Source: Bacillaceae bacterium
GTDB taxonomy: Bacteria; Bacillota; Bacilli; JACDOE01
DNA length: 64,000 nucleotides
Direction of reading: 5' to 3'
NCBI GenBank assembly: GCA_017656255.1
Contig: JACDOE010000002.1
Span: forward strand, 4,033 to 68,032
The notes beneath the pieces were generated by a model. The model saw nothing but the letters and a program-made list of their open reading frames with translations, did no database searches and had not been told where the DNA came from. Shown in pieces: positions 5,821 to 21,366 of this stretch; the first letter of the stretch is position 1, and each line of letters begins with the position of its first letter. A program made the position numbers and the translations under genes.

Positions 5821-5868
5821 AATCGAGAAGCGTACTTTAGATAGTACGCATTCTCGATTTTTTTTTGA
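5821..5868 (+). terminator. Rho-independent terminator after glmS
   Basis: 16-bp stem AATCGAGAAGCGTACT / AGTACGCATTCTCGATT followed by a T9 run. Confidence 0.8.
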
Positions 5869-6021: not shown

Positions 6022-6085
6022 ACTCAACTTCGATTACTTCATCATCTAGCCGGGGAAATTTCATTTTTACACATAATTTTGGACT
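6022..6085 (+). mobile_element. Solo IS256-family right-end remnant (about 65 bp, including the terminal inverted repeat)
   Basis: TTCATTTTTACACATAATTTTGGACT is identical to the right end of the intact IS at 16814..16840. Weaker upstream similarity (ACTCAACTTCGA...ACTTCATC) matches the last codons of the transposase gene. Confidence 0.6.
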
Positions 6086-6426
6086 CGACCGGAGGGGCTT
6101 TTCACCCTGAAGACAACCCTGGAATTCCATCCGATATATCACCGTCTCGAAGCCCGGATCCGTTCCCAAATTTTGCTGAGTTTGTTAGTATCATTACTTC
6201 TGGTAAGCATGGTCGAAGTGAAACGGGTGGGACCTGGAATAAGTTGAGTCACCTCCACGGTTCCTAGAAATCCATCCGGAAGCATAGACACGCCCACACG
6301 CCCTATTTCTATCTGAATACCTGTAAACCCAAGTATGACATGGATTTACAGGAATTTTATTTGCGTAGACGAACTCAGGTCTTTTTGGGGTTCTTTAAGG
6401 CTATCATCATAAACTTGAAAGAATAT

Positions 6427-9414
6427 TTATATGTTTTCCTTCAACTTTTCATAGCTTTCGGCTACTTTGTACTCGACATTTGTTTTTAGAGCTTCAAAAT
6501 GTTTGCGACCACACCTAATTTTTCCTACCTCTTTTAATCGTAGATCTTCTTGTTCTGTACTTCCTTTTGTTTCAACAACAAAGTATAACTTCTCTACACC
6601 TTGTATATCCATCAATATTGCCCAGTCAGGGTTGTAGTTTCCAAGTGGAGTATCAATGATAAATGAAGGCGGAAGTTTTACAAACAATTTGACGTCATCA
6701 TCGTTATTCAATTTTTCTGCAAAAGCTCGTTCCGTATTAGAATCATAACGAATGTAGTCATATACAGATTTATTTTTTGAAACTCCTATAGCATTTGCTT
6801 TCATGTAACCAATAAGCTCTTCATGTTCGAATAAGGACTGTTGGTAAAATTCATGGTCACCAATGCGCTCATATTTGATGCCATCGACAATGAGTTTTTT
6901 CTTCTCACGATTAATTATCTTCATAACTGCTTCCATAAATGCCTGTGGATTTTTCTCAAACTCATTTAAACGTTTAGAGCCGATTAAAATCTCAACCAAT
7001 GTACGACGCTTTAAATGGGTTTGTTCTTGAAGGTAACGTAAGATGTCTGGGAGGCGACGGTTCTCTTCCAATGCTTCGTAAACTCTAATCGTTTGACCTT
7101 CACCAGATACCCCAGATTGTTCTACTTTTAACAAAGCATTTTCTCTTTTAATCTTTCGTGCTTTGAAAGGCTCTAGTTTCTTTATTTCTTCAATACAACG
7201 TTTTTTAAGGGTTTCAACGTTAAGATCTACGGAATAGGTCGTTTTGTATTTGATTTGATTCCATAATTGTTTGAAATCATCCCCTAATAAAACTTCTTTA
7301 TTCAGTTTAATGGTAACCTCATCTTTTTTGTTAAAAACAGGTAACTTTTTGATAGAACGTCTAATCACGTGTTCAATATCGCCTTTTATTTCTTCAAATT
7401 CGGCCGGCACTGCAAATGTCTCTTTGACTAATGCTTCCTTAAGCGTGTCCTTTACTTTTCCTTGCTTCGTTATATAATTTTCTTTTAATAAGAATGAGAA
7501 AATTTTGGCTGATTTATCGTATCCAATTTCACTTTCTTGGCCTGTTTCTTCATCAACCATTGTAATCGTCGAAAAAGCATGCTCTTCAAGGTAACCGAAT
7601 TTAACGCCTGTTTCTTCTTCCATTTCTTTCTGTAGCGTCTCCGCAAACTCGTGATACGATTCGTTTGCGATTACGGTTAAGATATTTACGTCTTCATCAT
7701 ATTGGCGTTTACCTTCTTGGTTGACGGCAAGACGTAATCCACGTCCGATTTTTTGTCTTTTCGTAAATGTATCCTTTGTTTCAACAAGCGTACATATTTG
7801 AAAGACATTTGGGTTGTCCCATCCTTCTTTTAAAGCCGAGTGGGAGAAAATAAATCGTAAAGATGTATCAAAGCTTAATAGTTTTTCTTTCTCTTTCATA
7901 ATCAACTCAAATGTTGATTCATCGTCTTTATTCGAACGTAACGATCCATCTTTATTCATTCGGCTATCTTTAAATTGACCTTTCTTATCTTGAGAAAAAT
8001 ACCCGTTATGCACTTCTTCTGCATTACGGTTTACTATATATTTATCTTCTTTCCAAAGTGATTGGTACTTCGGTAAATTAATTAACTTTTCATATTCTTC
8101 TTCGAACATTTTGGCATATTTTCCTTTTTGCCAAGGTTGGCCTTTTGGGTAAATGCGGTAGTTTTCAACTTTGTCTATAAAGAAGAGCGTTAAAACTTTG
8201 ATCCCTTTATGAACGAGACGGAGCTCTTTATCTAAATGTGTACGAATCGCTTCACGAATTTGATACCTTTTTAGTAAATCGTCATCCATTCCGCCTATTA
8301 CTTCACCTAGTCGCAATACTTTACCGTTTGTAAACTCTACCGATTCATTTCCTGGATAACAATCAATTCCCTCTACCACATATCCTTTATACAGGTCCCG
8401 TTCACCGGATAAAAGGTATAAATCATTTTTTGTGTTTGGATTAATTTCCTTTTTCACACGTTTAACGGTACCGTTTTTCTTTTTCTCGTCTATTTCAATC
8501 GTAGCTTTGTAGCCATTTTTATTCGAAACACTAATGAGTTTAATGTATGGATCATTAAAATCATCATCCGAGTTTACCGATAATACCTCAATTTTTTTAA
8601 CTAACTTTTTTTCATACGCATCGACAGGGTCAAGCTTGTACATCAAATTGTATGTTTCCCGATGTGTAGCCGAATAACGTAATTTACACAATGGGTTTAA
8701 GGATGCAATTGCTTCTTTAGCTTTTTCCGTATTATCGACACTTTGTGGTTCATCGATAATGACAATTGGATTCGTTTCTTGGATGAACTGTATTGGACGT
8801 TTTCCGTTCATGGAATCACGTTCACGGTGAATTAAGTTTGCTTTATTTTCTTTTTCTGGATCATCGAAGCTCTTTTTAAATGCATCGATATTAATAATCA
8901 TCACTTCAATATTCGTACTTGTCGCAAAATCACGAACTTGTTCTAAGTCAGAAGAGTCATATTTAAAATAATGGCAATGTTGTCCTGGATACAGTTCAGA
9001 AAAGTGCTCTTCCGTCATTTGAAGGGATTTATAGACTCCTTCACGAATTGCAACACTTGGAACAACAATGATAAATTTTGAAAAACCGTACAGCTTATTC
9101 AATTCAAATATCGTTCTCGTATAAACATAGGTTTTACCGGTGCCTGTTTCCATTTCAACCGTAAAATTGCGATCTTGAATATCGGTACTTTTTTTCAAAT
9201 GATTGCGAATTTGGATCCTTTGGACGTTTTCAAGTAATTCAGCATCTGATATCTCCAACTTGTTTCCGATTCCTAGTTCGGTAAATTCTTGCCCCACAAT
9301 ATTGCCCATACTGACCGTGAAATTCGATACTTTTACAGGCTGCCCTTCAAAGATATCCGTAATGGATTTAATGGCGTCGAGCTGATATTGTTGTTCATCA
9401 AACTTAATCTTCAT
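6427..9414 (-). CDS. res: Type III restriction endonuclease Res subunit (SF2 helicase plus C-terminal PD-(D/E)xK nuclease)
   Basis: 995 aa. Helicase motif I TGTGKTYV and motif II IIDEPQ. C-terminal NPDW...VVETKG endonuclease motif. Lies immediately downstream of mod. Confidence 0.8.
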   Translation of the reverse strand: MKIKFDEQQYQLDAIKSITDIFEGQPVKVSNFTVSMGNIVGQEFTELGIGNKLEISDAELLENVQRIQIRNHLKKSTDIQDRNFTVEMETGTGKTYVYTRTIFELNKLYGFSKFIIVVPSVAIREGVYKSLQMTEEHFSELYPGQHCHYFKYDSSDLEQVRDFATSTNIEVMIINIDAFKKSFDDPEKENKANLIHRERDSMNGKRPIQFIQETNPIVIIDEPQSVDNTEKAKEAIASLNPLCKLRYSATHRETYNLMYKLDPVDAYEKKLVKKIEVLSVNSDDDFNDPYIKLISVSNKNGYKATIEIDEKKKNGTVKRVKKEINPNTKNDLYLLSGERDLYKGYVVEGIDCYPGNESVEFTNGKVLRLGEVIGGMDDDLLKRYQIREAIRTHLDKELRLVHKGIKVLTLFFIDKVENYRIYPKGQPWQKGKYAKMFEEEYEKLINLPKYQSLWKEDKYIVNRNAEEVHNGYFSQDKKGQFKDSRMNKDGSLRSNKDDESTFELIMKEKEKLLSFDTSLRFIFSHSALKEGWDNPNVFQICTLVETKDTFTKRQKIGRGLRLAVNQEGKRQYDEDVNILTVIANESYHEFAETLQKEMEEETGVKFGYLEEHAFSTITMVDEETGQESEIGYDKSAKIFSFLLKENYITKQGKVKDTLKEALVKETFAVPAEFEEIKGDIEHVIRRSIKKLPVFNKKDEVTIKLNKEVLLGDDFKQLWNQIKYKTTYSVDLNVETLKKRCIEEIKKLEPFKARKIKRENALLKVEQSGVSGEGQTIRVYEALEENRRLPDILRYLQEQTHLKRRTLVEILIGSKRLNEFEKNPQAFMEAVMKIINREKKKLIVDGIKYERIGDHEFYQQSLFEHEELIGYMKANAIGVSKNKSVYDYIRYDSNTERAFAEKLNNDDDVKLFVKLPPSFIIDTPLGNYNPDWAILMDIQGVEKLYFVVETKGSTEQEDLRLKEVGKIRCGRKHFEALKTNVEYKVAESYEKLKENI

Positions 9415-9429
9415 GACTCCATCTCCTCC

Positions 9430-11325
9430 TTAAATGACGCGGATATCTTCGACGCCATAACGTTTTAAAATTTGTTGTGCATTAATTCGAACGGTATCAT
9501 CTTTAAACCCTTCATCATAAAATACAACTCGTGCAGGTTTTTTCTGCGCAATTTCTTCAATATGTTCAAGCGTTAAATCTCTTTCTAAACAAATGAGTAA
9601 ATATCCCATACCCACTGAATAAACAACTTTATCAGCTACTTTTGTTTCTTCAATTGGAACTGTTAAATCAACACCATACTTGAGTAAAATTTCATACACA
9701 ACATCTTCTTGTGTACGCCCTTCTTTCACCGGATCAATTAAATCTAGTAAATTTCTTTCTACATCTGCTGTATTCTCATCCCAAACCTTTAAATTTGTAT
9801 CATCAAGCTTGAATACCTTAAACCCGATATCAAGATTCTCAATTCCTTCCTTGTCTTTATTCTCTTCCAATATCTTCTGACCCGCACGGCGAATACGTTC
9901 TTTTCCGATTTCACATATATTTTTAAAGCCTGCTTTAAATGCTTCTTTTTGATCATTTATTGGTTCATCTAATTGAATAAGGATAAACTTCCTTTTTCCA
10001 TTATCTTCGCTATTTAAATCAAAAACAGCATGAGCCGTAGTACTTGATCCTGCAAAAAAATCAAGTACTGTATCATGCTCTCCAAGTCCTAGCATCAATG
10101 ACTTCTTAATTAATTCCACAGGCTTTGGATGGTCAAAATACGAGGAACTAAAAAGCTCTCTAAAGACTATTGTTCCACGTTCTGTCCTAACATCCGCTTC
10201 ATCCCATATAGTCTTAGCTTTTGTAAGTGTTTTTCTATTTTTCTCATAAATATTCCATCCACCATTACGCTTTTCCTTAGCAATAACATTACTGTTTTCC
10301 GGATCATTTTCAATAATGTTTTCCGATAATAAATTTACCCCCCATCTCCAACAACTATCTTTCCCTTGACTATTTAATGGAAATACCTCTATATATTTAT
10401 CATTTTCTTTTACTAGATTTACAGGTGAAAATCCGTTCTTGTCTTTTATGTCAGGGTTAACATAAATTGGATAATAAAGATTTGGCCTGTTATTTTTGTT
10501 AAATTTCGGATTACGATTTCTTAATTCTCTTAATTCAAATCTTCCTTTATTGTCTTCATATTTAAATGATGACGTATCGGCCTTTGGAAGTAAGTTCAGA
10601 GTAGATTCATTGCTTTTAAAATAACATATCAAATATTCATGTGTTTTAGCTAAGTCTAAATAGTCTTGACCACCTTTATTCGTTTGTACAATGATTTGCC
10701 CTACAAAGTTGTGTTCACCAAAAATCTCATCACATATCTTCCGCAAATTATGAACTTCATTGTCATCAATACTTATAAATATTACACCATTATGTGTTAA
10801 CAAATTTTTCGCTAACTTTAAACGAGGATACATCATATTAAGCCAATCAGTATGATACCTACCATTTGTTTCTGGGTTTGATTTCATGCTTTCTTCATTC
10901 TTTTCTTTATAGTTTTTAATATTATCATGGAAGTCATCTTTATAAACGAAATCATTCCCTGTGTTATATGGTGGGTCAATGTAAATCATTTTTATTTTGT
11001 TACGATAGGAGTTCTGAAGAACGCGGAGTACTTCTAGGTTGTCTCCTTCAATATACAGGTTTTTTGTTGTATCCCAATTCACACTTTCCTCTTTACATGG
11101 TCGAAGTGTGCCTGTGGTTTGTTTTTGCGCAAGTTGAATGGCCTTTGTTTTTCCATTCCAAGTAAATTCATAGCGCTCTTTTTCTTTTTCAAGGTGTTCG
11201 CCAAGTGTCAGCAAGAGCTTTTCAACGTCAATTTTGTTTTCTGTAAATACTTCAGGGAAAAGTTGTTTTAGTTTTTCAATGTTGTCTTGTACAACGTTAA
11301 ATGTCTTTCCATCTAATTTTTGCAT
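9430..11325 (-). CDS. mod: Type III restriction-modification Mod subunit (N6-adenine DNA methyltransferase)
   Basis: 631 aa. Motif IV DPPYN and SAM motif FFAGSSTT. Size and mod-res order are typical of type III systems. Confidence 0.85.
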   Translation of the reverse strand: MQKLDGKTFNVVQDNIEKLKQLFPEVFTENKIDVEKLLLTLGEHLEKEKERYEFTWNGKTKAIQLAQKQTTGTLRPCKEESVNWDTTKNLYIEGDNLEVLRVLQNSYRNKIKMIYIDPPYNTGNDFVYKDDFHDNIKNYKEKNEESMKSNPETNGRYHTDWLNMMYPRLKLAKNLLTHNGVIFISIDDNEVHNLRKICDEIFGEHNFVGQIIVQTNKGGQDYLDLAKTHEYLICYFKSNESTLNLLPKADTSSFKYEDNKGRFELRELRNRNPKFNKNNRPNLYYPIYVNPDIKDKNGFSPVNLVKENDKYIEVFPLNSQGKDSCWRWGVNLLSENIIENDPENSNVIAKEKRNGGWNIYEKNRKTLTKAKTIWDEADVRTERGTIVFRELFSSSYFDHPKPVELIKKSLMLGLGEHDTVLDFFAGSSTTAHAVFDLNSEDNGKRKFILIQLDEPINDQKEAFKAGFKNICEIGKERIRRAGQKILEENKDKEGIENLDIGFKVFKLDDTNLKVWDENTADVERNLLDLIDPVKEGRTQEDVVYEILLKYGVDLTVPIEETKVADKVVYSVGMGYLLICLERDLTLEHIEEIAQKKPARVVFYDEGFKDDTVRINAQQILKRYGVEDIRVI

Positions 11326-12101
11326 CAGTCACACAACTCCTTTAATTCACTTAAAAGTGATTCAATGTTTGCTTGAATTTGTTTCATTTCTATATGAAGT
11401 TCCATCTTTATGCCAAAGTCTAACACATGATTTTGTTTTTGTTTTAATTCCTCTAACTGAGATTTTCTTACATTGACTTCTGATAACTTAGAAATGATTA
11501 AATCACGACTTTCATCTTGAGTTGGAAAGCACTCTATCCACTCAATGATTGGTGAACACTGCAACCAACGATTCAAGTCATCATAAAATTTGTAGAGATC
11601 AACAAACGATTGATTCGAGCACTTTAAGGCGTTTAGCAACTTTTCGTAGGAACTGTTATTGTTTTTTGGATGGAACCACCCAGTCAGTAATGGTTCATCC
11701 AACACAACTTTGGTAGGATCATTTTTATTCAACCGCTTATGACATGTGCTCAGCAACCACTCTTTTTCCTTTGACTCCATAATCAAAACAGCTGGATTTG
11801 GAATCGATTTATGAATCGCATGGATTATTCGATTAACATGTTGGTTCGTACGTAATTGTACATAAATCCAAACCACTTCAGCATATTGATGCACCTCTGA
11901 CTGATACGTAGAGATATTCATGCTTTGACGATTCATTACACTCAGTAAGTATATTCCTTCTATTTGAGAAGTAAATAGCTCTTTCTCCTTTTTCGATAAG
12001 TCACCTTGAGAAAAGAATGTTTTTTTCGGAACTTTTCGATTTAACACCGTTCTTTGCGGTATCTCAAACTGCTGGATAACCCATTCTCGCAACCTTCTCA
12101 C
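11325..12101 (-). CDS. DUF4391-like hypothetical protein of the helicase/type III module
   Basis: 258 aa with no catalytic motifs recognised. Its start/stop junctions are shared with the flanking genes (12102/12101 and 11325/11325). Size and context resemble DUF4391 proteins that accompany SNF2 helicases and DNA methyltransferases. The family assignment comes from memory of the architecture, not from an HMM. Confidence 0.45.
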   Translation of the reverse strand: MRRLREWVIQQFEIPQRTVLNRKVPKKTFFSQGDLSKKEKELFTSQIEGIYLLSVMNRQSMNISTYQSEVHQYAEVVWIYVQLRTNQHVNRIIHAIHKSIPNPAVLIMESKEKEWLLSTCHKRLNKNDPTKVVLDEPLLTGWFHPKNNNSSYEKLLNALKCSNQSFVDLYKFYDDLNRWLQCSPIIEWIECFPTQDESRDLIISKLSEVNVRKSQLEELKQKQNHVLDFGIKMELHIEMKQIQANIESLLSELKELCD

Positions 12102-15100
12102 CTACTTAATAATTAAAAATGAAATTAATTCAAAGTCTTCTGACGTTGTATTTGTATCTACTAATAAACTTGAGTCTCCTAAACTAAATAAAGATTCCAT
12201 TCCTTTTTCTTCGACAATTCCAAGAATAAATTCAACGACTGTATCTAATAATGACTTATAATCAGACATGTCCGCTAATTCATCCGTTTCTTTATGAAAT
12301 TGCAAGATTAATTCCGTAAACAATACATTTTGGCCCATGCAAACCTTTCGATAGAGGTCAAGGATTTGCTTCGTTTTGGAATGACCTAATAAAATATCAC
12401 CGTCATTACTCACATACACAAGATAATATGGATACAGAGCACTCAACTCTTTTATTTTGGCATTAGCGTTTCGTTGTTTGATACAAAAAATGACACCTGG
12501 TTTTGCTTCACCATTAGGAGTTAAATGTTTAGACGTGATTGAATACATACCTAGCGGAGCCGTTTCTAAATCAAGTTTATGTTTATTCATATAATCAACT
12601 AAATCCATCTTGAAGTCGTTCAATGTTAAGTCCGTGATCGAAATCCCGCCTGAAATATCCTCTAGATCAATTACTTCTTCTTGAAGTTGTTTCAGCTGCT
12701 TCGCACGATACTCTAGATCGTTCATTTTTTTCTTTTCATCATACTCGATTACATTCTCTTCTCCTGTTGCCGATATATCTAATAAAACCATACGACCACT
12801 TACACGAGCTTCTAAATTGATATACTCGTCTAAATCCATGTTTGGCCAGAAGTTCACAAGCTGAATCACATCATTTTTTGATCCGAGACGATCAATTCGA
12901 CCAAATCGTTGAATAATACGCACTGGATTCCAATGAATATCATAATTAATTAAATAATCACAGTCCTGTAAGTTTTGACCTTCAGAAATACAATCTGTTG
13001 CAATAAGTAGATCAATTTCTTCATTTGCCATTTCATCCACTTTATTTCGTTCTTTTGATACAGGGGAAAAATACGTTAAGATGGTATTTAAATCTTTTGG
13101 AATATTGCTTAAAGTTGTTTTATTTCCACCTGTACCGGTTACTAGAGCTGTGTGAATACCATATTCCTTTAGGATCCATTTGGACAGCTCATCGAATAAA
13201 TAGTTTGCTGTATCAGCAAAAGCCGTGAACACAATTATTTTTTTATTGTTTTGGTTTATTGGATTTGAAAGCTTATGATGAATCATAGACTTTAATTCTA
13301 AAAGTTTAGCATCCCGGTAAGGTCTGACTTTTGCCGATTCGACAAGAAGCTTCTCAAGTTTTTGTTTATCCTCTTCAAGGTCTTGACGCAATTTAATTTG
13401 ATCAATGTCTTGAAGCAGCACCTTGACTTTCGATCCAATTAGCATATCTTCCACATCATCGTCATCTATATTTATATCTGTAATATTAATCGACTGTTCA
13501 GTGAATTGATTAATATTTTCAAGCTTATTCAATAGATCATCAATTTTACCTAATAACGAGGCAATTGTCATGCCGAATGAGTGAATAGAGCTTTCCATTC
13601 GTTTTAAAAGATTAACACGCATTAAATGAACGAGACTACGTTCCCTGTCAATTTGTTTAAAAACAGATCCGCCTTTTACTTGGATATCGTATTTCTGACT
13701 ATATTCGGCCTGTTTCTCAGGCAAGACATATTTTAAAGGCGAATAGGCACTCAAATTCAATCGATTAATAATTTTATTTACTTCTCTAATTTCAGGAAAC
13801 TCTTTCTCTTCATCTATATCAGGATAAACATTAATTGGTTTTAATCTTTTTGGAAACTTCCCTATTTCTGACATGTTGTAGTATTTTTCAATATGTTTTC
13901 TAGACCTTGCGATAGTTATAGCATCCAACAATTTAAAATAATCAAAATTTAACATTTCTAATAATGTATCTGTTGTCCTTTTTTCTTCACCTAATTTTAA
14001 CCATTTATTAAAGTCTTGCTGTGCTTTTCTTAGTGTTAATTCAATACTATCAATTCCTGCTGAATTTAATGCATTATCTTTTCCTTCCGTAATAAAAGAC
14101 ACTTGATTTTTTAAATCATTCATTTTATTATTTACTGGTGTTGCTGAGAGCATTAAAACTTTTGTTTTTACTCCAGATCTAATTACTTGATTCATTAAAC
14201 GTGAATAACGGGTTTCTCGGTCTTTCCGCGCTTCATTATTTCGGAAATTATGTGATTCATCAATCACAACTAAGTCGTAGTTACTCCAATTTACAGTTGC
14301 TAAATTAATATCACCAGACATTCCACTATATCGACTAAGATCCGTATGATTTAACACATCGTAATTAAATCGATCTGCAGCTAAAACGTTTCGTTTGTCA
14401 TTTTGTGTATAGATTAGCCAATTTTCACGTAATTTTTTAGGACAAAGCACTAATACACGATCATTTCGAAGCTCGTAATATTTAATAACAGCAAGTGCTT
14501 CAAAAGTTTTTCCCAAACCAACACTATCAGCTATAATGCAGCCATTATATTTTTCAAGTTTATCAATGGCTCCTAAAACCCCATCTTTTTGAAATTTATA
14601 TAGTTTATTCCAAATGATCGTATCTTTAAAGCCTGTTTTAGATTTGACAATATCGTCTTCACTTAATTCTTCTAAAAAGTCTTTAAAGATATTATAAAGG
14701 GTCACATAATACAGAAACTCAGGTGTATTATCTTGATAAATTTTTTCGATCCGACTTAATACTTCTTGTTTAACATTTTCTACATGCTCATCATTGTTCC
14801 AGATTTGGTCGAACCATCTGAGATAATTCATTGTTTGGCCAGGTTCATTTATTAAAGAATTCATTTCATAATTAGTTGAATACGTATATCCTAATCCACT
14901 ACTCGTGAAATTTGAGGTGCCTTGAATGGCAATTGAATCATCACTCTTGTTTTGCACATGAATAAGGTTCCCGGGTGCCATTGGTAAATTTAACGATTTC
15001 ATTTGAACTTTTGAACGAATCCAGTCCGCACATTCACGTGCAATCTTAGCTTGATTGAGTTCGTTCCTAAATTTTACTTCTAAATCTATGCCTACCAAGC

Positions 15101-15347
15101 TATTCTCTCGTTTAAGCATTTCATGTTTGGCCATTTGATCAGGAATTTTCATATCACGTATAAAAGTTGGACTATTGAATAAAAATCGAACCTCTTCTAC
15201 TTTTAATAACTCTTTCTTAAGTGCTTCAAAAGCATATATTGTAAAATATGAAGACATAATCGATATTTTTGAACCCTTTTTTAGGAATTTCTTCAACTCG
15301 TCCCCAACATTACCATGCGTTTTATTATCTAGCATTTTTCCAACCAT
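12102..15347 (-). CDS. PLD-like nuclease domain fused to an SNF2-family (SF2) helicase
   Basis: 1081 aa. N-terminal phospholipase-D-like segment with H..K..DD..GTSNFT. SNF2 motif I DSVGLGKT, motif II DESHNFRN, and a helicase C domain. Head of a four-gene operon. Confidence 0.75.
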   Translation of the reverse strand: MVGKMLDNKTHGNVGDELKKFLKKGSKISIMSSYFTIYAFEALKKELLKVEEVRFLFNSPTFIRDMKIPDQMAKHEMLKRENSLVGIDLEVKFRNELNQAKIARECADWIRSKVQMKSLNLPMAPGNLIHVQNKSDDSIAIQGTSNFTSSGLGYTYSTNYEMNSLINEPGQTMNYLRWFDQIWNNDEHVENVKQEVLSRIEKIYQDNTPEFLYYVTLYNIFKDFLEELSEDDIVKSKTGFKDTIIWNKLYKFQKDGVLGAIDKLEKYNGCIIADSVGLGKTFEALAVIKYYELRNDRVLVLCPKKLRENWLIYTQNDKRNVLAADRFNYDVLNHTDLSRYSGMSGDINLATVNWSNYDLVVIDESHNFRNNEARKDRETRYSRLMNQVIRSGVKTKVLMLSATPVNNKMNDLKNQVSFITEGKDNALNSAGIDSIELTLRKAQQDFNKWLKLGEEKRTTDTLLEMLNFDYFKLLDAITIARSRKHIEKYYNMSEIGKFPKRLKPINVYPDIDEEKEFPEIREVNKIINRLNLSAYSPLKYVLPEKQAEYSQKYDIQVKGGSVFKQIDRERSLVHLMRVNLLKRMESSIHSFGMTIASLLGKIDDLLNKLENINQFTEQSINITDINIDDDDVEDMLIGSKVKVLLQDIDQIKLRQDLEEDKQKLEKLLVESAKVRPYRDAKLLELKSMIHHKLSNPINQNNKKIIVFTAFADTANYLFDELSKWILKEYGIHTALVTGTGGNKTTLSNIPKDLNTILTYFSPVSKERNKVDEMANEEIDLLIATDCISEGQNLQDCDYLINYDIHWNPVRIIQRFGRIDRLGSKNDVIQLVNFWPNMDLDEYINLEARVSGRMVLLDISATGEENVIEYDEKKKMNDLEYRAKQLKQLQEEVIDLEDISGGISITDLTLNDFKMDLVDYMNKHKLDLETAPLGMYSITSKHLTPNGEAKPGVIFCIKQRNANAKIKELSALYPYYLVYVSNDGDILLGHSKTKQILDLYRKVCMGQNVLFTELILQFHKETDELADMSDYKSLLDTVVEFILGIVEEKGMESLFSLGDSSLLVDTNTTSEDFELISFLIIK

Positions 15348-15457
15348 GCATATCCCCCTGTTTCTTTATGTATTATTTTTTAGGGATTGATTTATAATAA
15401 CAATTTTATTTTATAGTTACATTTTACCATTATCTTTGTACATTATTGCAATAAGTT

Positions 15458-16840
15458 AAGTCCATATAATTGTGTAAAAAGAAAATCTATAAAAAAGGAG
15501 CCATTTTCAAATCCCTCGGTTAGAATGAAGTTGTGCACACTACATTCGAGAGGAGAGATTTGAAATGGCTCAATACAAGATTAACGTAGATTCAGAGATT
15601 TTGCATCAACTTTTTCTGGGGAATTCTCAAGATTCAGGGGTAGCGGCTTTGTTGGAGTCCGTGTTAAATCAGGTCTTAGAGGCACAGGTTTCAGAACAAT
15701 TAGGGGCCGAACCCTATGAACGCACAGATGAACGCCAGGGTTATCGAAACGGTACATATCCTCGTCAACTGACGACGCGTGTCGGTAAGATCACCCTTCG
15801 AGTACCTCGTCTGAGAAACGGCAAGTTTTCTACCGAATTGTTTGCCCGTTACCAGAGAAGTGAACAAGCATTGGTTCTGGCTCTGATGGAAATGGTGGTC
15901 AATGGGGTTTCGACGCGAAAAGTGAGCCAGATTACAGAAGAATTGTGCGGTGAGGAGTTTTCCAAGTCGACAGTTTCTGAGCTGTGCAAAAAACTGGATC
16001 CGATTGTACAAGCCTGGAATAACCGAAACCTTCGAGATCGAAATTATCCGTTTGTCATTGTGGATGCAATGGTGATTAAAGTGCGTGAAGAGGGGCGGGT
16101 TCGATCCCGTGGTGTCCTGATAGGATACGGGATTAATGACGAAGGGCATCGGGAAGTATTAGGCATGATGCTTGGAGACAGCGAATCTGAAGCGAGCTGG
16201 AATGACTTTTTCTCCTGGTTGAAATCCCGCGATTTACGCGGTGTGGATCTCATTGTTTCTGACCACCACAGCGGACTGGTCAAAGCGATCCGAAATCACT
16301 TTCAGGGGGTAACGTGGCAGCGTTGCCAGACTCACTTTATGAGAAACATTCTGGATGCCACCCCAAAGGCTTTAAAAGAAGAAATCCATACGCGGGTCAG
16401 AGCCGTGTTTGATGCACCCGATATGAAGACAGCCAGGCTGTTACTTGAAGATGTGTTGGCAGAATATGAAGAGAAAGCTTCAAAGGCGATGAATATCCTG
16501 GAGACCGGTTTTGATGATGCGACAGCCGTCCTCGTTTTACCAAAGAAATACCGCAAACGTCTCCGGACAACAAATGGGATGGAGAGGCTGAATGAAGAGA
16601 TCCGACGCAGAGAACGGGTCATTCGCATCTTTCCTAATAGAGAGTCGGCCATGAGACTCATTGGAGCTTTGCTCATGGAACAGGATGAGAAATGGTCCAG
16701 TGGCCGAAAGTATTTGGACATGACGGAATACCACTTATGGCTTCCATCTCAAAAACAAGATAAACAGGTTCAAAAGGTTACTCAACTTCGAACTTCATCT
16801 TCTAACAGGGGGATTCATTTTTACACATAATTTTGGACTT
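15458..16840 (+). mobile_element. IS256-family insertion sequence (about 1.38 kb)
   Basis: Imperfect terminal inverted repeats AAGTCCATATAATTGTGTAAAAAG (left) and revcomp of TTCATTTTTACACATAATTTTGGACTT (right). Contains a single Mutator-like transposase gene. Confidence 0.75.
15565..16830 (+). CDS. IS256-family transposase
   Basis: 421 aa. Hallmark NGVSTRKV motif and DDE region typical of IS256/Mutator-like transposases. Confidence 0.85.
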   Translation: MAQYKINVDSEILHQLFLGNSQDSGVAALLESVLNQVLEAQVSEQLGAEPYERTDERQGYRNGTYPRQLTTRVGKITLRVPRLRNGKFSTELFARYQRSEQALVLALMEMVVNGVSTRKVSQITEELCGEEFSKSTVSELCKKLDPIVQAWNNRNLRDRNYPFVIVDAMVIKVREEGRVRSRGVLIGYGINDEGHREVLGMMLGDSESEASWNDFFSWLKSRDLRGVDLIVSDHHSGLVKAIRNHFQGVTWQRCQTHFMRNILDATPKALKEEIHTRVRAVFDAPDMKTARLLLEDVLAEYEEKASKAMNILETGFDDATAVLVLPKKYRKRLRTTNGMERLNEEIRRRERVIRIFPNRESAMRLIGALLMEQDEKWSSGRKYLDMTEYHLWLPSQKQDKQVQKVTQLRTSSSNRGIHFYT

Positions 16841-16979
16841 AATCGACATTTCCCCTTTGTAGTTATAGCCAGAGTAAATGGTAAATAACAAAGAGAGATT
16901 TATATTATTATAAAAGAAAAAGGAAATTGAGAATAAATATAGAAGTTAGAAGTAAATTTTAATCATTTGTTTAGATCAG

Positions 16980-17549
16980 ATGTTTAGGATGTGTATATCT
17001 ATGACTGGAATAATATTTGTAGGAGGAATTCATGGAGTTGGTAAAACAACTTTATGCAAGCAAATATCTGAACAGTTTAAATTATTACATTATTCAGCGA
17101 GTGATTTAATATCACAAAGGAAAAAAGTCGATTTTAATAATGAGAAAAAAGTTAGGAATATAAATGAGAACCAAAATTTATTACTGGAGGCAATAAATTG
17201 TTTAGATACTCGAGATAATTGTTTATTATTAGATGGTCATTTTTGCTTAATAAACACATTTGGAGAAATTAGAAAAATTCCTATTGAGACATTTATTAAT
17301 TTATCACCTAGCGCAATAATCTGTTGTACTGAATCTCCTACAAAAATTTTTACTAGGTTAAAAGAGAGAGATAACATAAATTATGATATTAATTTTTTAG
17401 AAAGATACCAAAGAATCGAATTAGCATATTCACAAGAAATATCAGAGAAATTAAATGTACCTTATTTCGTTTACTCTCCGGTCGAAGAAATGAATAATTT
17501 TTATAAATTTTTAGAAAGAATAATTAAAGGAGGGGTAGAATGTGAGTGA
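16980..17549 (+). CDS. Small P-loop NTPase / nucleotide-kinase-like protein
   Basis: Walker A GGIHGVGKTT near the N-terminus, about 185 aa, kinase-like size. An alternative start at 17001 is possible. Very AT-rich. The next gene overlaps its 3' end. Confidence 0.55.
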   Translation: MFRMCISMTGIIFVGGIHGVGKTTLCKQISEQFKLLHYSASDLISQRKKVDFNNEKKVRNINENQNLLLEAINCLDTRDNCLLLDGHFCLINTFGEIRKIPIETFINLSPSAIICCTESPTKIFTRLKERDNINYDINFLERYQRIELAYSQEISEKLNVPYFVYSPVEEMNNFYKFLERIIKGGVECE

Positions 17550-18591
17550 TTATTTAGAAAGAAGAAAATTTAAGGATGTTGATTTAAACGATAATTTTTT
17601 TGATTCTCTAAAAGAAGATTATCACGAATTTGAAACTTGGTTTAGAAAAAAAGAAGAAGAGGAAGCGTTTTTACTATATGATAATGATAATAAAATTCAA
17701 GGATTTCTTTATTTTAAAATTGAGGAAGGTCCAATAAAAGATGTTGAACCAGACATTAATCAAAAAAAAGTATTGAAAATCGGAACTTTTAAAATTAACC
17801 CTCATGGTACTAGATTAGGTGAGCGTTTTATAAAGAAGGCTTTAGATTATGCCATTGTAGAGAATGTAGATGCGTGTTATGTTACTATTTTTGAAAGGCA
17901 TGATGTCTTAGTAAAGCTGTTTGAAAGGTATGGTTTTATTAGGTACGGCGTTAAAGATACATCCAACGGGATTGAACTAGTTTTAGTTAAAGATTTGCGT
18001 GAGTTAAAGAATGATATATTATTGGATTATCCTTTAATCAGTACAAAAAATTCAAGAAAATTCATCCTTTCAATTTACCCTAAGTACCATTCAAGGATGT
18101 TTCCGGATTCTATCTTAAAAACTGAAAAAGTCGATATTCTAGAAGATGTTTCATATACGAATAGTATACATAAGATATATGTTTGTAGAATGGCTGTCGA
18201 TCAAGCGAACCGTGGAGATATCTTTGTAATATATCGCACAAAAACTCCTGGACAAAGTGCCGAATATACATCTGTTGTAACATCAGTGTGTGTTGTAGAG
18301 GATATAAAGAGTCAAGATGAATTTAAAAACTTTGAAGAATTTTTTGAATATGCTAATGCTTATAGTATATTTAATCGTGATGATCTAAAAAAGTGGTATA
18401 ACAAAGGGGGATGTTTTATTATCAAAATGACTTACAATGCAGCTTTGAGTAAAAGATTAATTAGAAAAAAACTAATTGAAGAAATAGGTCTTGAACGTAA
18501 TAGCTATTGGGGATTTTTCGAAATATCAAATGAGCAATTTAATCGAATTCTAGAAGAAGGTGAAGTTAATGAAAGTATTATTATCGATTAA
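17542..18591 (+). CDS. GNAT-fold acetyltransferase-like protein with about 190-aa uncharacterised C-terminal domain
   Basis: GTG start with RBS AAAGGAGGGG. The N-terminal half carries the GNAT motif-A-like HGTRLGERF. The C-terminal half has no recognisable motif. Overlaps both neighbours (8 nt upstream, 23 nt downstream). Confidence 0.5.
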   Translation: MSDYLERRKFKDVDLNDNFFDSLKEDYHEFETWFRKKEEEEAFLLYDNDNKIQGFLYFKIEEGPIKDVEPDINQKKVLKIGTFKINPHGTRLGERFIKKALDYAIVENVDACYVTIFERHDVLVKLFERYGFIRYGVKDTSNGIELVLVKDLRELKNDILLDYPLISTKNSRKFILSIYPKYHSRMFPDSILKTEKVDILEDVSYTNSIHKIYVCRMAVDQANRGDIFVIYRTKTPGQSAEYTSVVTSVCVVEDIKSQDEFKNFEEFFEYANAYSIFNRDDLKKWYNKGGCFIIKMTYNAALSKRLIRKKLIEEIGLERNSYWGFFEISNEQFNRILEEGEVNESIIID

Positions 18592-18943
18592 ACCCGAATA
18601 TGTTGAACAAATTGAAAATGGAAACAAAAAATTCGAATATAGAAAAAGAATTTTTAAAAAAAATGTTGATTCGGTAGTGGTTTACTCAACAAAGCCGGTT
18701 GGGAAAATAGTTGGAGAAATTATAATAGAAGAAATTATAAATGATTCTCCAGAAGAAATTTGGAACAAGACAAATAAATATTCTGGAATCTCAGAAGAAA
18801 ACTTTAAAAATTACTTTTCTAATCGAAAGGAAGGGTTTGCTATAAAGATCAAGAAATTTCTTAAATATGATAAACCTTTAAATCCATTTGAAATTTTTAA
18901 TGATTTTGTACCTCCGCAGTCTTATAAATATATAGAAAGATAA
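18569..18943 (+). CDS. ASCH (PUA-like) domain protein
   Basis: MKVLLSIKPEYVEQIENGNKKFEYRK is the canonical ASCH N-terminal pattern. About 124 aa. Start is inside the 3' end of the upstream gene; the ORF-track start at 18560 is GTG. Confidence 0.65.
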   Translation: MKVLLSIKPEYVEQIENGNKKFEYRKRIFKKNVDSVVVYSTKPVGKIVGEIIIEEIINDSPEEIWNKTNKYSGISEENFKNYFSNRKEGFAIKIKKFLKYDKPLNPFEIFNDFVPPQSYKYIER

Positions 18944-18948
18944 ATAGG

Positions 18949-18972
18949 GTGACTACAAGTCACTTATTTTTT
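18949..18972 (+). terminator. Rho-independent terminator after the ASCH gene
   Basis: Stem GTGACT / AGTCAC with a 3-nt loop, followed by TTATTTTTT. Confidence 0.6.
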
Positions 18973-19008
18973 ATGTACAAGTAATCAAAGTAAAAAAGGT
19001 GATTCATT

Positions 19009-21366
19009 ATGATACGAACAGGCGTTAGGTGGCTAGAATCCGAAACTCGCAAAATATTTAATGCAACCAAAAAATCAGACGAATTATTGGCATATCTTGA
19101 TTCACTTTTATTTCATAAAAAAGTGGCTACTGGAAGTGCTGAATCATTTGAATCTGGTCGAAAGCAGGGCAGAATGACGTATTATAAAGAAAATAAAAGA
19201 TTCATTGTAGCCGCACCTAGAAAAAAAGGAGATTACATACATGTCGTCCTAACAATCCAAACTATCAGCAGAGCTGAAATGGAGGAACAGGGATTTAAAT
19301 TGGGAAACCAACATGATATTTATCTCTATAATAAAGAAGAAATAGAAAGGTTTGTCGATTTTTTAAATTTTAAACTAAACCGGGGACGACAATTAAAATT
19401 ATCATCACTGGTGTTGAAAGAATGGATTAAGAGATACATACAAGATGAAGATAGTCGTAAACGATATAAACAAGTTAATAAATCCAGATTTACAACACTT
19501 GAACATTTTAAAATTTATCTTGAACAGTTAAAATCCGGTGACCTGTCGCTATTAGAATTTAAAAAGAACATTGACCAGTTATTTAAAACAAAACATGAAA
19601 TAGCCGGCGAAAAAATCAACATATGGGGATTCAGCGGCTTTTCAGGTCAAATGTTTTTCAACCAAATCTGTAATCAGGTTGAACATGCCGGAATGATGGA
19701 TGAATTAACCAATGCTTTTCTTGAGGCAATTGAATTACCTGAACAAATCAACCATGATTTCAGCTGGGTCAAACATAAATTTCAAACCTTTATTGAAATC
19801 ATTAAAATATCGGCTAAAAAAGCCATTGAGAACGGGTTTCCCCCACAAAAATGTGCCAAAGTTAAATTTTCAACATTTTTCTTAAGTTTTTTCTGGGGGA
19901 TTCAGGATCTTTATCATATCCCGATTTATTATCGGTCTTCCAGAGATGCACTGGAGTATCTAGAGTATCCACTTAATCAAAACACTAAACATTTTGATGG
20001 AACCAATTACATATATTTTGCAGAACGTATGAACGAAGTTTCTGACGAAGTATCCACTTATTTGCCTGATGACAATACATTTAACATGTTAGAGCTGGAA
20101 CATTTTCTTCATTATGTAAAACAAAAAGTTGAGGAACAAAAGCAAAGTCAGGATGAAATTTACACTCTTTCAGATGATTTGTTTGCAGAGAGAATCAAGA
20201 ATACATTTATTGATATAGGAATCGTGATCGATGAGATGTCCAGCTCAATGGGTGAAGAGACGGATTTACCCGAGAGCCATCATGGCCAGGAGGTATGGCG
20301 GTTTTCGGGGAAGACAAACAAAGATGCCATGGTTTCTTATCTATTCTGCTGGGATAATCCGGATACGTATCTTTCCACCGTTTATGAAGAAGATGAAGAA
20401 GGTGCCTCCAAAAATATAGGGGAGATAGGCGGAGAAAATGAAGATGACTTCCTCCGCAATATGAAAAGATTTTTCATAGATCGTTTTAAGGAAAAAAAGC
20501 CCTATACACTTGAAGATGCGGTAGGGGAGACTTATATTGAAAAGAAATTGCTGGAAGAATGGCTGGAGCTTTTAAGTGAAAACAAGCAAATTATTTTTTA
20601 TGGTCCGCCCGGAACGGGTAAAACCCTTGTTGCCAAAAAACTGGCAAAAATACTGGCACAGCACGAAAACAGAACACGATTTATCCAATTTCACCCTTCT
20701 TACACCTATGAAGAATTTATAGAGGGACTGCGTCCTGAACTGGTTAAGACGGATCAGGGGACTTCCCAGTTATCCGTTAAAGTAAAACCCGGTATTTTTA
20801 AATCCTTATGTAAAGAAGCTTCAAAACCGGAAAATAAGTATGATTCCTATGTTTTAATTATCGATGAGATTAATCGCGCAAACACAGCTAAAGTATTTGG
20901 AGAATTGTTATATGCGCTGGAATACCGTGATACGCCGGTCCCTCTTCCTTACTCGAATGAAGATAAATTAATCGTTCCTTCAAATGTGTATCTGATTGGA
21001 ACCATGAATACGACTGACCGGTCCCTGGCCCATATAGATTTTGCTTTACGTCGCCGGTTTCAATTTATCCCCTTTTTTCCAGAGCAAACCGAACACGTCT
21101 TAAAATCATATCTGGATAAACATCAACCGGAAATGTCATGGGTCTTTGATCTTGTTAAATACGTTAATCAAAAAATAGAAGATCCCCATTATGCGATCGG
21201 ACACAGTTACTTTATGGGCCAGGAATTAACTGAAGAGAAGTTGGAACGAATATGGAAGTATCAGATTATACCTTATCTTGAAGAATGCTTTGTTCATCAG
21301 CCTGATAAAATAGAAGAATTTAAACTGGAAACGTTATTGGAAAATGGGGAGTTCAGGCATGACTAG
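19009..21366 (+). CDS. McrB-like AAA+ GTPase with long N-terminal putative DNA-recognition region
   Basis: The C-terminal 260 aa carry Walker A GPPGTGKT and the McrB signature IDEINRANTAKVFGELLYALEYR. The N-terminal 520 aa are unassigned. Confidence 0.75.
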   Translation: MIRTGVRWLESETRKIFNATKKSDELLAYLDSLLFHKKVATGSAESFESGRKQGRMTYYKENKRFIVAAPRKKGDYIHVVLTIQTISRAEMEEQGFKLGNQHDIYLYNKEEIERFVDFLNFKLNRGRQLKLSSLVLKEWIKRYIQDEDSRKRYKQVNKSRFTTLEHFKIYLEQLKSGDLSLLEFKKNIDQLFKTKHEIAGEKINIWGFSGFSGQMFFNQICNQVEHAGMMDELTNAFLEAIELPEQINHDFSWVKHKFQTFIEIIKISAKKAIENGFPPQKCAKVKFSTFFLSFFWGIQDLYHIPIYYRSSRDALEYLEYPLNQNTKHFDGTNYIYFAERMNEVSDEVSTYLPDDNTFNMLELEHFLHYVKQKVEEQKQSQDEIYTLSDDLFAERIKNTFIDIGIVIDEMSSSMGEETDLPESHHGQEVWRFSGKTNKDAMVSYLFCWDNPDTYLSTVYEEDEEGASKNIGEIGGENEDDFLRNMKRFFIDRFKEKKPYTLEDAVGETYIEKKLLEEWLELLSENKQIIFYGPPGTGKTLVAKKLAKILAQHENRTRFIQFHPSYTYEEFIEGLRPELVKTDQGTSQLSVKVKPGIFKSLCKEASKPENKYDSYVLIIDEINRANTAKVFGELLYALEYRDTPVPLPYSNEDKLIVPSNVYLIGTMNTTDRSLAHIDFALRRRFQFIPFFPEQTEHVLKSYLDKHQPEMSWVFDLVKYVNQKIEDPHYAIGHSYFMGQELTEEKLERIWKYQIIPYLEECFVHQPDKIEEFKLETLLENGEFRHD

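Follow-up and report, generated by a model that had tools for sequence, protein, structure and literature searches.

A cassette of four tightly packed genes in a Bacillaceae genome is interpreted here, at a probability of about one half, as a type III restriction-modification (R-M) system to which an ATP-driven accessory module has been added, one that depends on the methyltransferase Mod and the restriction subunit Res and would boost or extend restriction. The added pair consists of an SNF2-family ATPase, here named HEL, and a DUF4391 protein. The dependency runs one way: HEL-DUF4391 was never seen without Mod-Res, and Mod-Res survives alone.

Organization of the four-gene cassette

The window, the whole stretch of 64,000 nucleotides analyzed, carries the cassette on the minus strand from 15347 to 6427, with the open reading frames in the order HEL, DUF4391, Mod, Res (Table 1). 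On re-reading, the ORF positions and junctions agreed with those of the first-pass annotation in coordinates and strand, and every motif quoted there was found, namely, DSVGLGKT and DESHNFRN in HEL, DPPY and FFAGSSTT in Mod, and TGTGKT, DEPQ, and PD...ExK (D929, E947, and K949) in Res, where all of them are intact.

TABLE 1 Features of the cassette and its leader in window coordinates
Feature	Position	Strand	Description
HEL	12102..15347	-	1081-aa SNF2-family ATPase; N-terminal PLD-like relic domain; conserved C-terminal region without recognized fold
PLD-like relic domain of HEL, residues 23-183	14799..15281	-	PLDc_2; predicted catalytically inactive
SNF2 ATPase core of HEL, about residues 250-840	12828..14600	-	Pfam domains and motifs
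DUF4391 protein	11325..12101	-	258-aa ORF; PF14335 full-length
Type III Mod	9430..11325	-	631 aa; N6-adenine methyltransferase, beta-class motif order, variable central target-recognition domain
Type III Res	6427..9414	-	995 aa; SF2 helicase-like ATPase and C-terminal PD-(D/E)xK nuclease
PD-(D/E)xK endonuclease domain of Res, residues 881-986	6457..6774	-	Pfam RE_endonuc PF19778, E=1.3e-38
Upstream intergenic leader of operon	15348..15564	-	No regulator gene; adjoins divergent Mutator-family (Transposase_mut) transposase gene

At the HEL/DUF4391 junction, a GTG codon directly follows the HEL stop codon TAG, and an alternative TTG start lies 9 nt downstream, preceded by the Shine-Dalgarno sequence AGGTGA. 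The real start is probably this TTG at 12092, giving a protein of 255 aa, the length of the database protein P0001 from a Bacillaceae metagenome-assembled genome, with which the window protein is 100% identical. The stop codon of DUF4391 and the start codon of Mod overlap in TGATG, and the 15-nt spacer between Mod and Res contains GGAGG. A consensus scan of the operon for promoters and terminators returned fewer promoter-like sites than were present in shuffled sequence. The cassette is located in a low-GC island together with McrBC-like genes and the PADLOC candidate PDC-M11.

Mod and Res form a canonical type III pair

Type III R-M is treated as a two-gene system of Mod and Res, in which an asymmetric site is hemimethylated and cleavage needs ATP and a pair of unmethylated sites in inverse orientation. 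The window Mod matches the PADLOC model MTase_III over its full length (711 bits) as well as Pfam N6_N4_Mtase, with DPPY at residue 117 and FFAGSSTT at residue 423. Its target-recognition domain (TRD; about residues 245-395) is just 14-50% identical among close relatives, which points to swapping of the specificity domain. Directly downstream, Res matches PADLOC REase_III (1042 bits) and Pfam ResIII, with RE_endonuc at the C terminus, aligns full-length with NCBIfam PRK15483 (362 bits), and matches EcoP15I Res (PDB 4zcf) at E=1e-59. Full architecture, mod-then-res gene order, and model scores thus uphold the assignment of both proteins to canonical type III R-M.

The rule that two genes suffice does not describe this cassette, since two further genes are present in every HEL-bearing locus examined. 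Related Mod-Res pairs without the extra genes exist, so the two proteins can probably function as an R-M system by themselves.

HEL-DUF4391 depends on Mod-Res in one direction

Among the loci examined (HEL orthologs with at least 45% identity), HEL-DUF4391 was not seen without Mod-Res; HEL relatives at about 27% identity belong to other systems. The standalone Mod-Res pairs of loci L034, L037, and L038 nest within the cassette Res clades of a neighbor-joining tree without support values. In locus L012, HEL lacks residues of about 19-364, including Walker A, and the DUF4391 protein lacks its N-terminal domain, with Mod and Res at full length. The earlier description of the two proteins as obligate extra components therefore stands for the pair, which always accompanies Mod-Res, and falls for Mod-Res, which persists after natural loss or decay of the pair.

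This survival rules out an essential safety role and still allows a modulatory one, and it is also the one argument for enhancement as the likely direction of the effect. A reading that we consider unlikely is nonetheless that the pair is a safety or establishment module, in which HEL-DUF4391 would restrain Res on host DNA by evicting Mod-Res from unmethylated self sites. It might do so after replication or just after plasmid entry into a new host, by analogy to type I restriction alleviation. The cassette is frequently plasmid-borne and mobile, and fills more than half of a 16.7-kb mobilizable plasmid. A small HTH or WYL/BrxR-like regulator occupies the upstream leader position in many homologous loci, as is typical of R-M establishment control. 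Proteins of the SNF2 family displace proteins from DNA, and the nearest solved relatives of HEL, with likeness at the motif level only, are the Sulfolobus Rad54-like SNF2 protein and RapA. Against this reading, Mod-Res remains intact where the pair has been lost or has decayed (L034, L038, and L012), so the pair is not needed to spare the host from Res, and classical type III pairs of related architecture (PRK15483) manage without it.

The DUF4391 protein is the fastest-evolving component

The tentative DUF4391 assignment of the 258-aa protein was confirmed by a full-length match to PF14335 above the gathering threshold (E=2.6e-44, 152.3 bits versus a cutoff of 29.9; residues 12-245 on model positions 1-231 of 232). 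Its conserved polar residues K26 and E75 form no recognizable catalytic set. An AlphaFold2 model (pLDDT 79.8) has an N-terminal alpha/beta domain and a long C-terminal helical hairpin. No fold relatives were returned by Foldseek at E<0.09 or by a sequence profile against the PDB, and there is a weak hint of an inactive REase-like fold. The family comprises 1,589 clusters at 50% identity, and neither PADLOC nor NCBIfam has a model for it.

The DUF4391 protein evolves fastest by far, with identities of 48-91% against 76-100% for HEL, dropping across phyla to about 20% against about 50%. HEL, DUF4391, and Res show correlated pairwise identities (rho 0.91-0.92). These three proteins co-evolve, and Mod is exchanged independently. 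A role of DUF4391 as a TRD reader or adaptor co-varying with Mod specificity was rejected, since its identity follows that of HEL and Res and not that of the Mod TRD (rho 0.23).

Fast evolution of DUF4391 beside a highly conserved ATPase is a pattern typical of arms-race interfaces. It fits a guard or counter-counter-defense function, in which DUF4391 would sense anti-restriction or DNA-protecting proteins of phages and HEL would remove them for Mod-Res. This is rather improbable, because the divergence of DUF4391 follows the HEL/Res phylogeny with no episodic swaps, the searches with DUF4391 found no domain with a known sensor function, and its rapid change may equally reflect weak constraint on an adaptor.

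HEL is an SNF2 motor with a degenerate PLD domain

HEL has the full set of SNF2 motifs I to VI and matches the Pfam domains SNF2-rel_dom (47.2 bits), Helicase_C (57.5 bits), and ResIII. Of the four proteins it is the best conserved, with 47-58% identity across phyla. In the ortholog alignment, which spans Bacillales to an archaeon, motifs I (GLGKT), II (DESH), V, and VI hardly vary, and GLGKT, DESH, and QRxGRxxR are invariant across phyla.

The first-pass annotation had labeled the protein a helicase-nuclease, and this label had to be abandoned. The HxK(x)4D(x)6G(S/T)xN signature of the active PLD/HKD nuclease superfamily is not found in HEL, the window copy of which reads H130-x-Q132-x4-D137...GTSN and lacks the catalytic Lys of HxK. 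This Lys is absent in 13/13 aligned orthologs, the His gives way to M, S, V, L, or I in 6/13 (L013, L014, L015, L017, L019, and L021), and the invariant columns of the alignment include no HKD residue. Only 1 of 12 orthologs reaches PLDc_2, on which the window copy itself scores marginally (about 26.7-30.4 bits versus a cutoff of 27), and the HEL family profile matched no PLD enzyme in the PDB. With the HKD motif absent or unconserved, HEL is regarded as a motor and not a helicase-nuclease; an active PLD nuclease was rejected, and Res is the sole predicted nuclease of the cassette. Since the His is retained in the Bacillales orthologs, the window copy among them, and a Lys stands at +4, some residual PLD chemistry is conceivable in this subclade.

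The same evidence makes it very improbable that HEL is a second effector, i.e., a PLD-type helicase-nuclease directed or licensed by Mod, giving two nucleases per system, similar to MtsD of MANTIS. The HKD and SNF2 architecture does resemble that of MtsD and of helicases related to type 2 BREX, and the window HEL keeps His130, D137, and GTSN. The losses across its orthologs oppose this, as does a score of 139 bits versus a cutoff of 1100 on the MANTIS-type helicase model NCBIfam NF042964 (phospholipD_antiphage).

The four genes are linked across bacteria and archaea

In the HEL-centered census, which covers the best 80 of at least 582 metagenome HEL matches, with more divergent HEL relatives outside the sample, DUF4391 lay downstream of HEL in 68/68 scorable loci, Mod in 42/43, and Res in 33/33. 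In L114, the exception for Mod, Mod-Res lies upstream instead, likewise on the same strand. The gap between HEL and DUF4391 is 15 nt or less in 60 of the 68 loci, often with a 4-nt overlap. Insertions of more than 600 nt occur between them in 5/68, which contradicts the idea that the two genes are never interrupted. The cassette was carried by all 12 Bacillales genome loci, with HEL and DUF4391 decayed in one (L012), and all four genes were present in 13/13 sampled plasmid contexts, which came from Proteobacteria, Firmicutes, and an archaeon; in three of these contexts, an IS element or an unannotated gap breaks up the set. HEL was found immediately upstream in all 10 DUF4391-centered contigs. 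A native plasmid version of the cassette is present in 10 of 5,426 complete E. coli genomes; a megablast search of E. coli with the window cassette as the query gave no match.

The neighborhoods of homologs were thus constant in metagenomes, Bacillales genomes, and plasmids, and the suggestion that the helicase and the small protein are not chance neighbors of mod-res holds. It is hardly credible that HEL-DUF4391 and an ordinary type III R-M system are two independent systems co-travelling in defense islands: defense genes do cluster, unrelated ones are often inserted inside the cassette at other loci, and the gene order is permuted in L114 and L103, but co-occurrence is 100% in the loci scored in the census across bacteria and archaea, HEL and Res co-evolve (rho 0.91), the genes share a strand with near-zero spacers, and HEL-DUF4391 has no effector domain of its own.

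Comparison with known defense systems

Canonical type III systems (EcoP15I, EcoP1I, and the PRK15483 family) have the same Mod and Res architecture and the same gene order as the cassette. They consist of two genes, whereas the cassette adds an upstream SNF2 ATPase and a DUF4391 protein that co-evolve with Res.

MANTIS (Gao_RL) is a type 2 BREX-related system with the DUF499 AAA+ ATPase MtsA, the DUF3870 protein MtsB, and an active HKD nuclease effector, in which the HKD-helicase ATPase is recruited by a complex that the methyltransferase directs and that includes a small co-regulator (bioRxiv 10.64898/2026.09.23.753747). It shares with the cassette four genes, a methylation basis, two ATPases, a sequence-specific methyltransferase, a small co-regulator without a known fold, and a helicase whose N-terminal domain is of the HKD/PLD type. 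In contrast, no DUF499 or DUF3870 was found in the four proteins and the neighboring ORFs scanned, the HKD of HEL is degenerate, and the nuclease is provided by the type III Res. Identity with Gao_RL/MANTIS was ruled out by the different gene set, and on model scores HEL is not an MtsD ortholog; its match to PADLOC PLD_Helicase is partial (100 bits).

Class 1 DISARM is likewise a methylation-based defense, in which an N6-adenine methyltransferase and a component with a PLD domain accompany the SNF2 helicase DrmD. The cassette differs in lacking DrmA and DrmB (YprA helicase and DUF1998) and in having its PLD as a fused domain, predicted to be inactive, instead of a separate DrmC. HEL reached 169 bits on the DrmD model (cutoff 610), over the C-terminal half only, and membership was rejected on this score and the missing DUF1998/YprA genes.

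Hma also has an SNF2 helicase and a methyltransferase encoded together, in a defense operon that is an insertion hotspot for other defense genes; its SNF2 protein HmaA ends in an active NOV_C PD-(D/E)xK nickase, HmaB is an m5C-type methyltransferase, and HmaC is an AAA+ ATPase (PMC11232893). HEL has no NOV_C domain and the cassette no AAA+ partner, and Hma membership was excluded by the partial HmaA match (85 bits) and the missing core genes. BREX types 2 and 3, in which the core genes PglZ, BrxC, and PglX go with the BrxHI/BrxHII helicases, were rejected as well: the BrxH matches were only partial and did not exceed 97 bits, and PglZ and BrxC are missing from the island.

The sole full-length PADLOC match of HEL was C3a139 "HKD+Snf2" (470 bits, residues 16-1079), a candidate type III CRISPR accessory cluster with four occurrences near type III CRISPR loci (Shah et al. 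2018, PMC6546367). C3a139 and HEL very probably belong to the same protein family, although the cluster listing drew no link to DUF4391 or Mod-Res (PMC6546367). A scan of the ORFs around the window copy, down to a length of 80 aa, showed no cas genes. A literature search for DUF4391, PF14335, and type III with SNF2 or PLD returned no description of the cassette and no DUF4391 paper in a defense context. As no model in PADLOC or NCBIfam and no paper was found to cover the set, the earlier remark that it may be undescribed still applies.

A proposed motor module added to type III restriction

In the proposed mechanism, the four genes would form one methylation-based restriction system of two modules. 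In the first, Mod would recognize an asymmetric site and mark self DNA by methylation, and Res would act as the ATP-dependent switch and nuclease. In the second, HEL would serve as an SNF2-family motor on double-stranded DNA, with DUF4391 as its translationally coupled partner of an alpha/beta domain and a coiled-coil hairpin, probably an adaptor or regulator bound to HEL. The second module, with no effector of its own, would depend on the first and spend ATP on DNA engaged or scanned by Mod-Res, by which restriction may be increased or broadened. The step affected could be the movement of DNA, driven directionally in place of the passive sliding of ordinary type III enzymes, or the clearing of DNA-bound proteins. 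The recruitment of the HKD-helicase ATPase in MANTIS offers a precedent for such an arrangement, and the role suggested in the first-pass annotation, DNA sensing or remodeling gated by methylation, is hypothetical.

Phages exploit the weaknesses of type III enzymes, which slide passively after the ATP switch, need two inverted sites, and are lost from free DNA ends. It is possible, though doubtful, that the SNF2-DUF4391 module supplies a true DNA translocase, replacing or supplementing the passive one-dimensional sliding of Res. Such a system could cut single sites, sites in the same orientation, linear DNA with free ends, or DNA coated with phage proteins, and would stand as a class of its own among ATP-dependent restriction systems, having a nuclease-free remodeler as an integral subunit.

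For annotation, defense finders now report the locus just as "RM type III", and HEL figures among the candidate CRISPR accessory proteins. The loci, with at least 582 metagenome HEL matches, make up a large type III clade across bacteria and archaea, often plasmid-borne, with an SNF2 motor and DUF4391. If HEL and DUF4391 work with Mod-Res, this would be the first function for DUF4391 and would place a further SNF2 motor in methylation-based immunity beside those of DISARM, BREX type 3, MANTIS, and Hma, here with an unusually simple and well-understood partner system that makes the role of the motor directly testable.

A four-gene cassette in a low-GC block

The cassette consists of HEL, an SNF2-family protein with a phospholipase D (PLD)-like N-terminal domain, a DUF4391 (PF14335) protein, and the type III restriction-modification (R-M) methyltransferase Mod and restriction subunit Res. 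An ORF scan of the window returned exactly the four minus-strand positions given in the first-pass annotation. At the HEL/DUF4391 junction, a GTG directly follows the HEL stop codon TAG, and an AGGTGA Shine-Dalgarno sequence precedes a TTG 9 nt downstream (sequence read). The TTG is the more likely DUF4391 start, since it yields a 255-aa protein 100% identical to a Bacillaceae MAG protein. The DUF4391 stop and the Mod ATG overlap (TGATG), and the 15-nt Mod/Res spacer includes GGAGG.

The cassette (33 to 37% GC) is housed in a low-GC block of about 18 kb (window 5812-24100; 31 to 40% GC, genome approximately 52%) that starts directly after glmS. No tRNA genes were found anywhere in the 64-kb window. 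No regulator lies upstream of HEL at the window copy; at other loci, small HTH_17 or HTH_3, or WYL/BrxR-like regulators are often located directly upstream of HEL.

Genes of the cassette and its surroundings in the window, with example insertion sites at homologous loci
Feature	Position	Strand	Description
glmS	3904-5811		adjoins start of low-GC block
Res	9414-6427	minus	ORF, 995 aa
Mod	11325-9430	minus	ORF, 631 aa
DUF4391	12101-11325	minus	ORF, 258 aa
HEL	15347-12102	minus	ORF, 1081 aa
Mutator-family transposase gene	15565-16830		abuts cassette
AAA_17 kinase-like gene	16980-17549		low-GC block
PDC-M11A	17542-18591		PADLOC candidate, after AAA_17 kinase-like gene
PDC-M11B	18560-18943		PADLOC candidate, ASCH domain
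McrB-like AAA_5 gene	19009-21366		low-GC block
McrC	21344-22579		with McrB-like AAA_5 gene
PIN-domain ORF (weak)	23481-24041		low-GC block
Example insertion sites	L056 13994-15691; L083 11181-12338; L116 13970-17262; L096 13827-14864		homologous loci

Conservation of the four-gene unit

Linkage was surveyed independently in genomes, annotated plasmids and a HEL-centred metagenome scan (n = 3). All 12 of the 12 Bacillales loci found via DUF4391 show the order HEL-DUF4391-Mod-Res, with HEL and DUF4391 (the pair) decayed in Neobacillus jeddahensis. The four genes were present in 13/13 plasmid contexts inspected, an IS element or unannotated gap interrupting three of the 13 cassettes (L014, L022, and L023) and an extra gene lying between DUF4391 and Mod in L016. 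The plasmid hosts were Proteobacteria (Paraburkholderia, three Acinetobacter plasmids, an E. coli IncF plasmid with the cassette at 25504-34844 of NZ_CP075717.1 [L015], and Vibrio), Firmicutes (two Enterococcus plasmids, Levilactobacillus, Latilactobacillus, Lactiplantibacillus, and Listeria) and the archaeon Methanomethylovorans. The plasmids include pMsp65 from Acinetobacter sp. NEB149. Of 5,426 complete genomes, 10 contain the E. coli version, mostly on plasmids; in phage records, the cassette hardly occurs. In the Lactiplantibacillus plantarum locus L036, the approximately 9-kb cassette takes up more than half of a 16.7-kb mobilisable MobQ plasmid, which suggests that it benefits or stabilises the plasmid itself.

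The metagenome scan gave at least 582 confirmed HEL relatives, the best 80 of which were scored with custom HMMs, a locus being counted only where enough sequence was present. Among these best 80, DUF4391 was downstream of HEL on the same strand in 68 of 68 (within 15 nt in 60), Mod downstream of DUF4391 in 42 of 43, and Res downstream of Mod in 33 of 33. In L114 (232-13873), the sole Mod exception, and L103 (1-7516), Mod-Res or Res is found upstream of the pair, in the same orientation and separated from it by other ATPase genes; linkage is kept even where gene order changes. HEL was directly upstream in all 10 DUF4391-centred contigs from divergent family representatives. The joint recurrence of all four genes refutes chance juxtaposition, against which the first-pass annotation had called for a neighbourhood survey.

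The cassette is also a hotspot at which other defence genes insert: roughly one locus in three carries such insertions, most of them at the Mod-Res junction. In L042 to L121, insertions of >600 nt occupied 13/37 Mod-Res, 9/42 DUF4391-Mod and 5/68 HEL-DUF4391 junctions. The inserted genes encode GmrSD, YhcG/DUF1016 nucleases, an OLD/Gabija-like ATPase-TOPRIM protein, AbiEii, Schlafen-AlbA_2, DUF6119, UvrD-like helicases, and small PLD-like proteins. In L024 (8847-9386), the expected place of Mod, directly after DUF4391 at the end of the contig, is taken by a Phage_integrase-family gene, which may have been inserted or may encode a recombinase that acts on Mod.

One-way dependency of HEL and DUF4391 on Mod-Res

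The association is asymmetric. No HEL ortholog of ≥45% identity was seen without Mod-Res; plasmid matches approximately 27% identical to HEL belong to unrelated systems. Close relatives of the window Mod and Res that lack the pair were found in Thiodictyon (Res 50% identical), Aeromonas (Mod disrupted by an IS element) and Staphylococcus hominis. In a neighbour-joining tree without support values, the Res proteins of these three each nest within cassette-type Res clades, the staphylococcal one nearest to the Listeria cassette Res (distance 0.19). In the N. jeddahensis locus (L012, 8331-15315), the accessory pair has decayed naturally: through an in-frame deletion that joins residue ~18 to ~365, HEL has lost residues ~19-364 and with them Walker A and the PLD-like domain, and DUF4391 is reduced to residues 116-257 by loss of its N-domain, whereas Mod and Res are full length. 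This decay and the standalone relatives show that Mod-Res can persist without the pair. The earlier description of the pair as "obligate extra components" thus stands in one direction, HEL-DUF4391 never having been seen without Mod-Res, and falls in the other.

HEL, DUF4391, and the type III subunits

HEL contains SNF2-rel_dom and Helicase_C domains (Pfam); one ortholog is named at source "rapA: RNA polymerase-associated protein RapA". The only full-length PADLOC match of HEL is C3a139 ("HKD+Snf2"), a model that derives from proteins listed in 2018 for their proximity to type III CRISPR loci and belongs to no defined system (Shah et al. 2018, PMC6546367). C3a139 appears to be the HEL family, and its listing probably reflects defence-island co-location rather than CRISPR function.

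The PLD catalytic motif has been lost. In the window HEL, the motif region reads IHVQNKSDDSIAIQGTSNFT, i.e., H-x-Q-x4-D...GTSN, with the His at residue 130, and the catalytic Lys is missing. The window protein was aligned with 12 orthologs from Bacillales, Proteobacteria, Enterococcus and one archaeon: the Lys occurs in no sequence, six have M, S, V, L or I in place of the His, and no HKD residue is among the invariant columns of the domain. On PLDc_2 (Pfam), the window domain scored 26.7 bits, the cutoff being 27. Of 12 HEL sequences, the window protein alone reached PLDc_2, and the profile of the domain family matched no solved PLD enzyme. SNF2 motifs I, II, V, and VI are near-identical in all aligned orthologs; the Walker A lysine of the window HEL is K280. 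Since the Lys is absent, the His unconserved, PLDc_2 reached by the window protein only and a profile match to solved PLD enzymes lacking, the domain is read as inactive, and HEL is best described from its sequence as an SNF2 ATPase with a presumably inactivated PLD-like N-domain, a relic, rather than the "helicase-nuclease" first proposed.

The tentative DUF4391 assignment proved unambiguous (full length, E = 2.6e-44, Pfam); no PADLOC or NCBIfam model exists for the family. Clustered at 50%, it comprises 1,589 representatives; of the top 150 matches, almost all are standalone proteins of approximately 230 to 270 aa. Annotations at source are inconsistent for DUF4391 as for HEL (plasmid matches H24, H75, and H165; proteins P0084 and P0097), some DUF4391 members being named "chemotaxis protein". 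An AlphaFold2 model from a 25-sequence alignment (pLDDT 79.8, pTM 0.74) predicts an N-terminal alpha/beta domain (approximately residues 1-145) joined through a short helical linker to a long helical hairpin at the C-terminus (residues 196-257). Foldseek returned no significant fold relative of the model. Only P15, K26, E75, P103, and Y173 are invariant across phyla, with no recognisable catalytic set among them, and DUF4391 is treated as a non-enzymatic partner of HEL. The second gene in Listeria, a 185-aa "hypothetical protein", is a minimised DUF4391 (hhalign probability 97%, E = 5e-11).

Mod and Res are canonical type III subunits, as initially annotated (Pfam/PADLOC/NCBIfam): Mod matches PADLOC MTase_III (711 bits) with DPPY followed by FFAGSSTT, and Res matches REase_III (1042 bits) with TGTGKT, DEPQ and a C-terminal RE_endonuc domain containing D929/E947/K949 (sequence read). 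The alignment of Res to NCBIfam PRK15483 runs over its full length, and EcoP15I Res is matched with E = 1e-59; Res is predicted to carry the only nuclease of the cassette.

Co-evolution and exchange of Mod alleles

When the window copy and 11 Bacillales loci are compared in pairs, the identities of HEL, DUF4391, and Res are strongly correlated with one another (rho 0.91 to 0.92), whereas neither Mod core nor TRD correlates with them (rho between −0.14 and 0.23), which indicates that the three evolve as a unit while Mod alleles are exchanged. Between Pallidibacillus (L001) and Ureibacillus (L002), HEL is 100%, Res 99% and DUF4391 91% identical, in contrast to 82% for Mod core and 21% for the TRD; this looks like a recent Mod allele replacement, hence a specificity change, in an otherwise identical cassette across genera. 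DUF4391 tracking Mod specificity was ruled out, its identity following HEL/Res and not the Mod TRD. Across phyla, DUF4391 evolves fastest (approximately 20% identity) and HEL slowest (47 to 58%).

Proposed role and relation to known systems

Translational coupling suggests that HEL and DUF4391 form a complex. This complex would work with Mod-Res, since the pair was never seen by itself, lacks an effector and co-evolves with Res. Type III cleavage depends on two unmethylated sites in inverted orientation; once ATP has triggered a switch, Res moves by passive sliding, and enzymes that slide off a free end are lost. It is plausible that an SNF2 double-stranded-DNA translocase could provide directed movement or remove roadblocks.

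As Mod-Res persists after its loss, the pair may enhance or extend restriction rather than protect the host, and a safety or establishment role is, on the same ground, unlikely. We regard a guard against anti-restriction as improbable, and HEL as an active second nuclease, at odds with the missing Lys and replaced His, as more doubtful still. Two independent systems are hardly credible given the three observations that tie the pair to Mod-Res.

Of the systems described, canonical type III R-M and MANTIS/Gao_RL come nearest: the former accounts for two of the four genes, and the latter is a methylation-based system of analogous four-part logic but with other proteins and an active HKD (bioRxiv 10.64898/2026.09.23.753747). 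Class 1 DISARM and Hma (PMC11232893) have the SNF2-plus-methyltransferase theme in common with the cassette, which falls outside both in membership tests. The type III locus of Rhizobium sp. NLR16a plasmid p7 (L035, 1648-10976) is ordered HTH-SNF2-Mod-DUF262-Res; its 949-aa SNF2 protein, without a PLD-like domain, resembles HEL at motif level only. Since this protein is of a different subfamily and DUF4391 is absent there, type III systems seem to have acquired SNF2 motors independently on more than one occasion. In the literature searched, of incomplete coverage, DUF4391 occurs in two papers only, both of them outside any defence context, and PF14335 was not mentioned; the four-gene arrangement was absent from the type III and defence-system genomics reviews searched. 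RefSeq annotates the cassette gene by gene, so curators have probably encountered it. The cassette represents a widespread and experimentally tractable variant of type III R-M.
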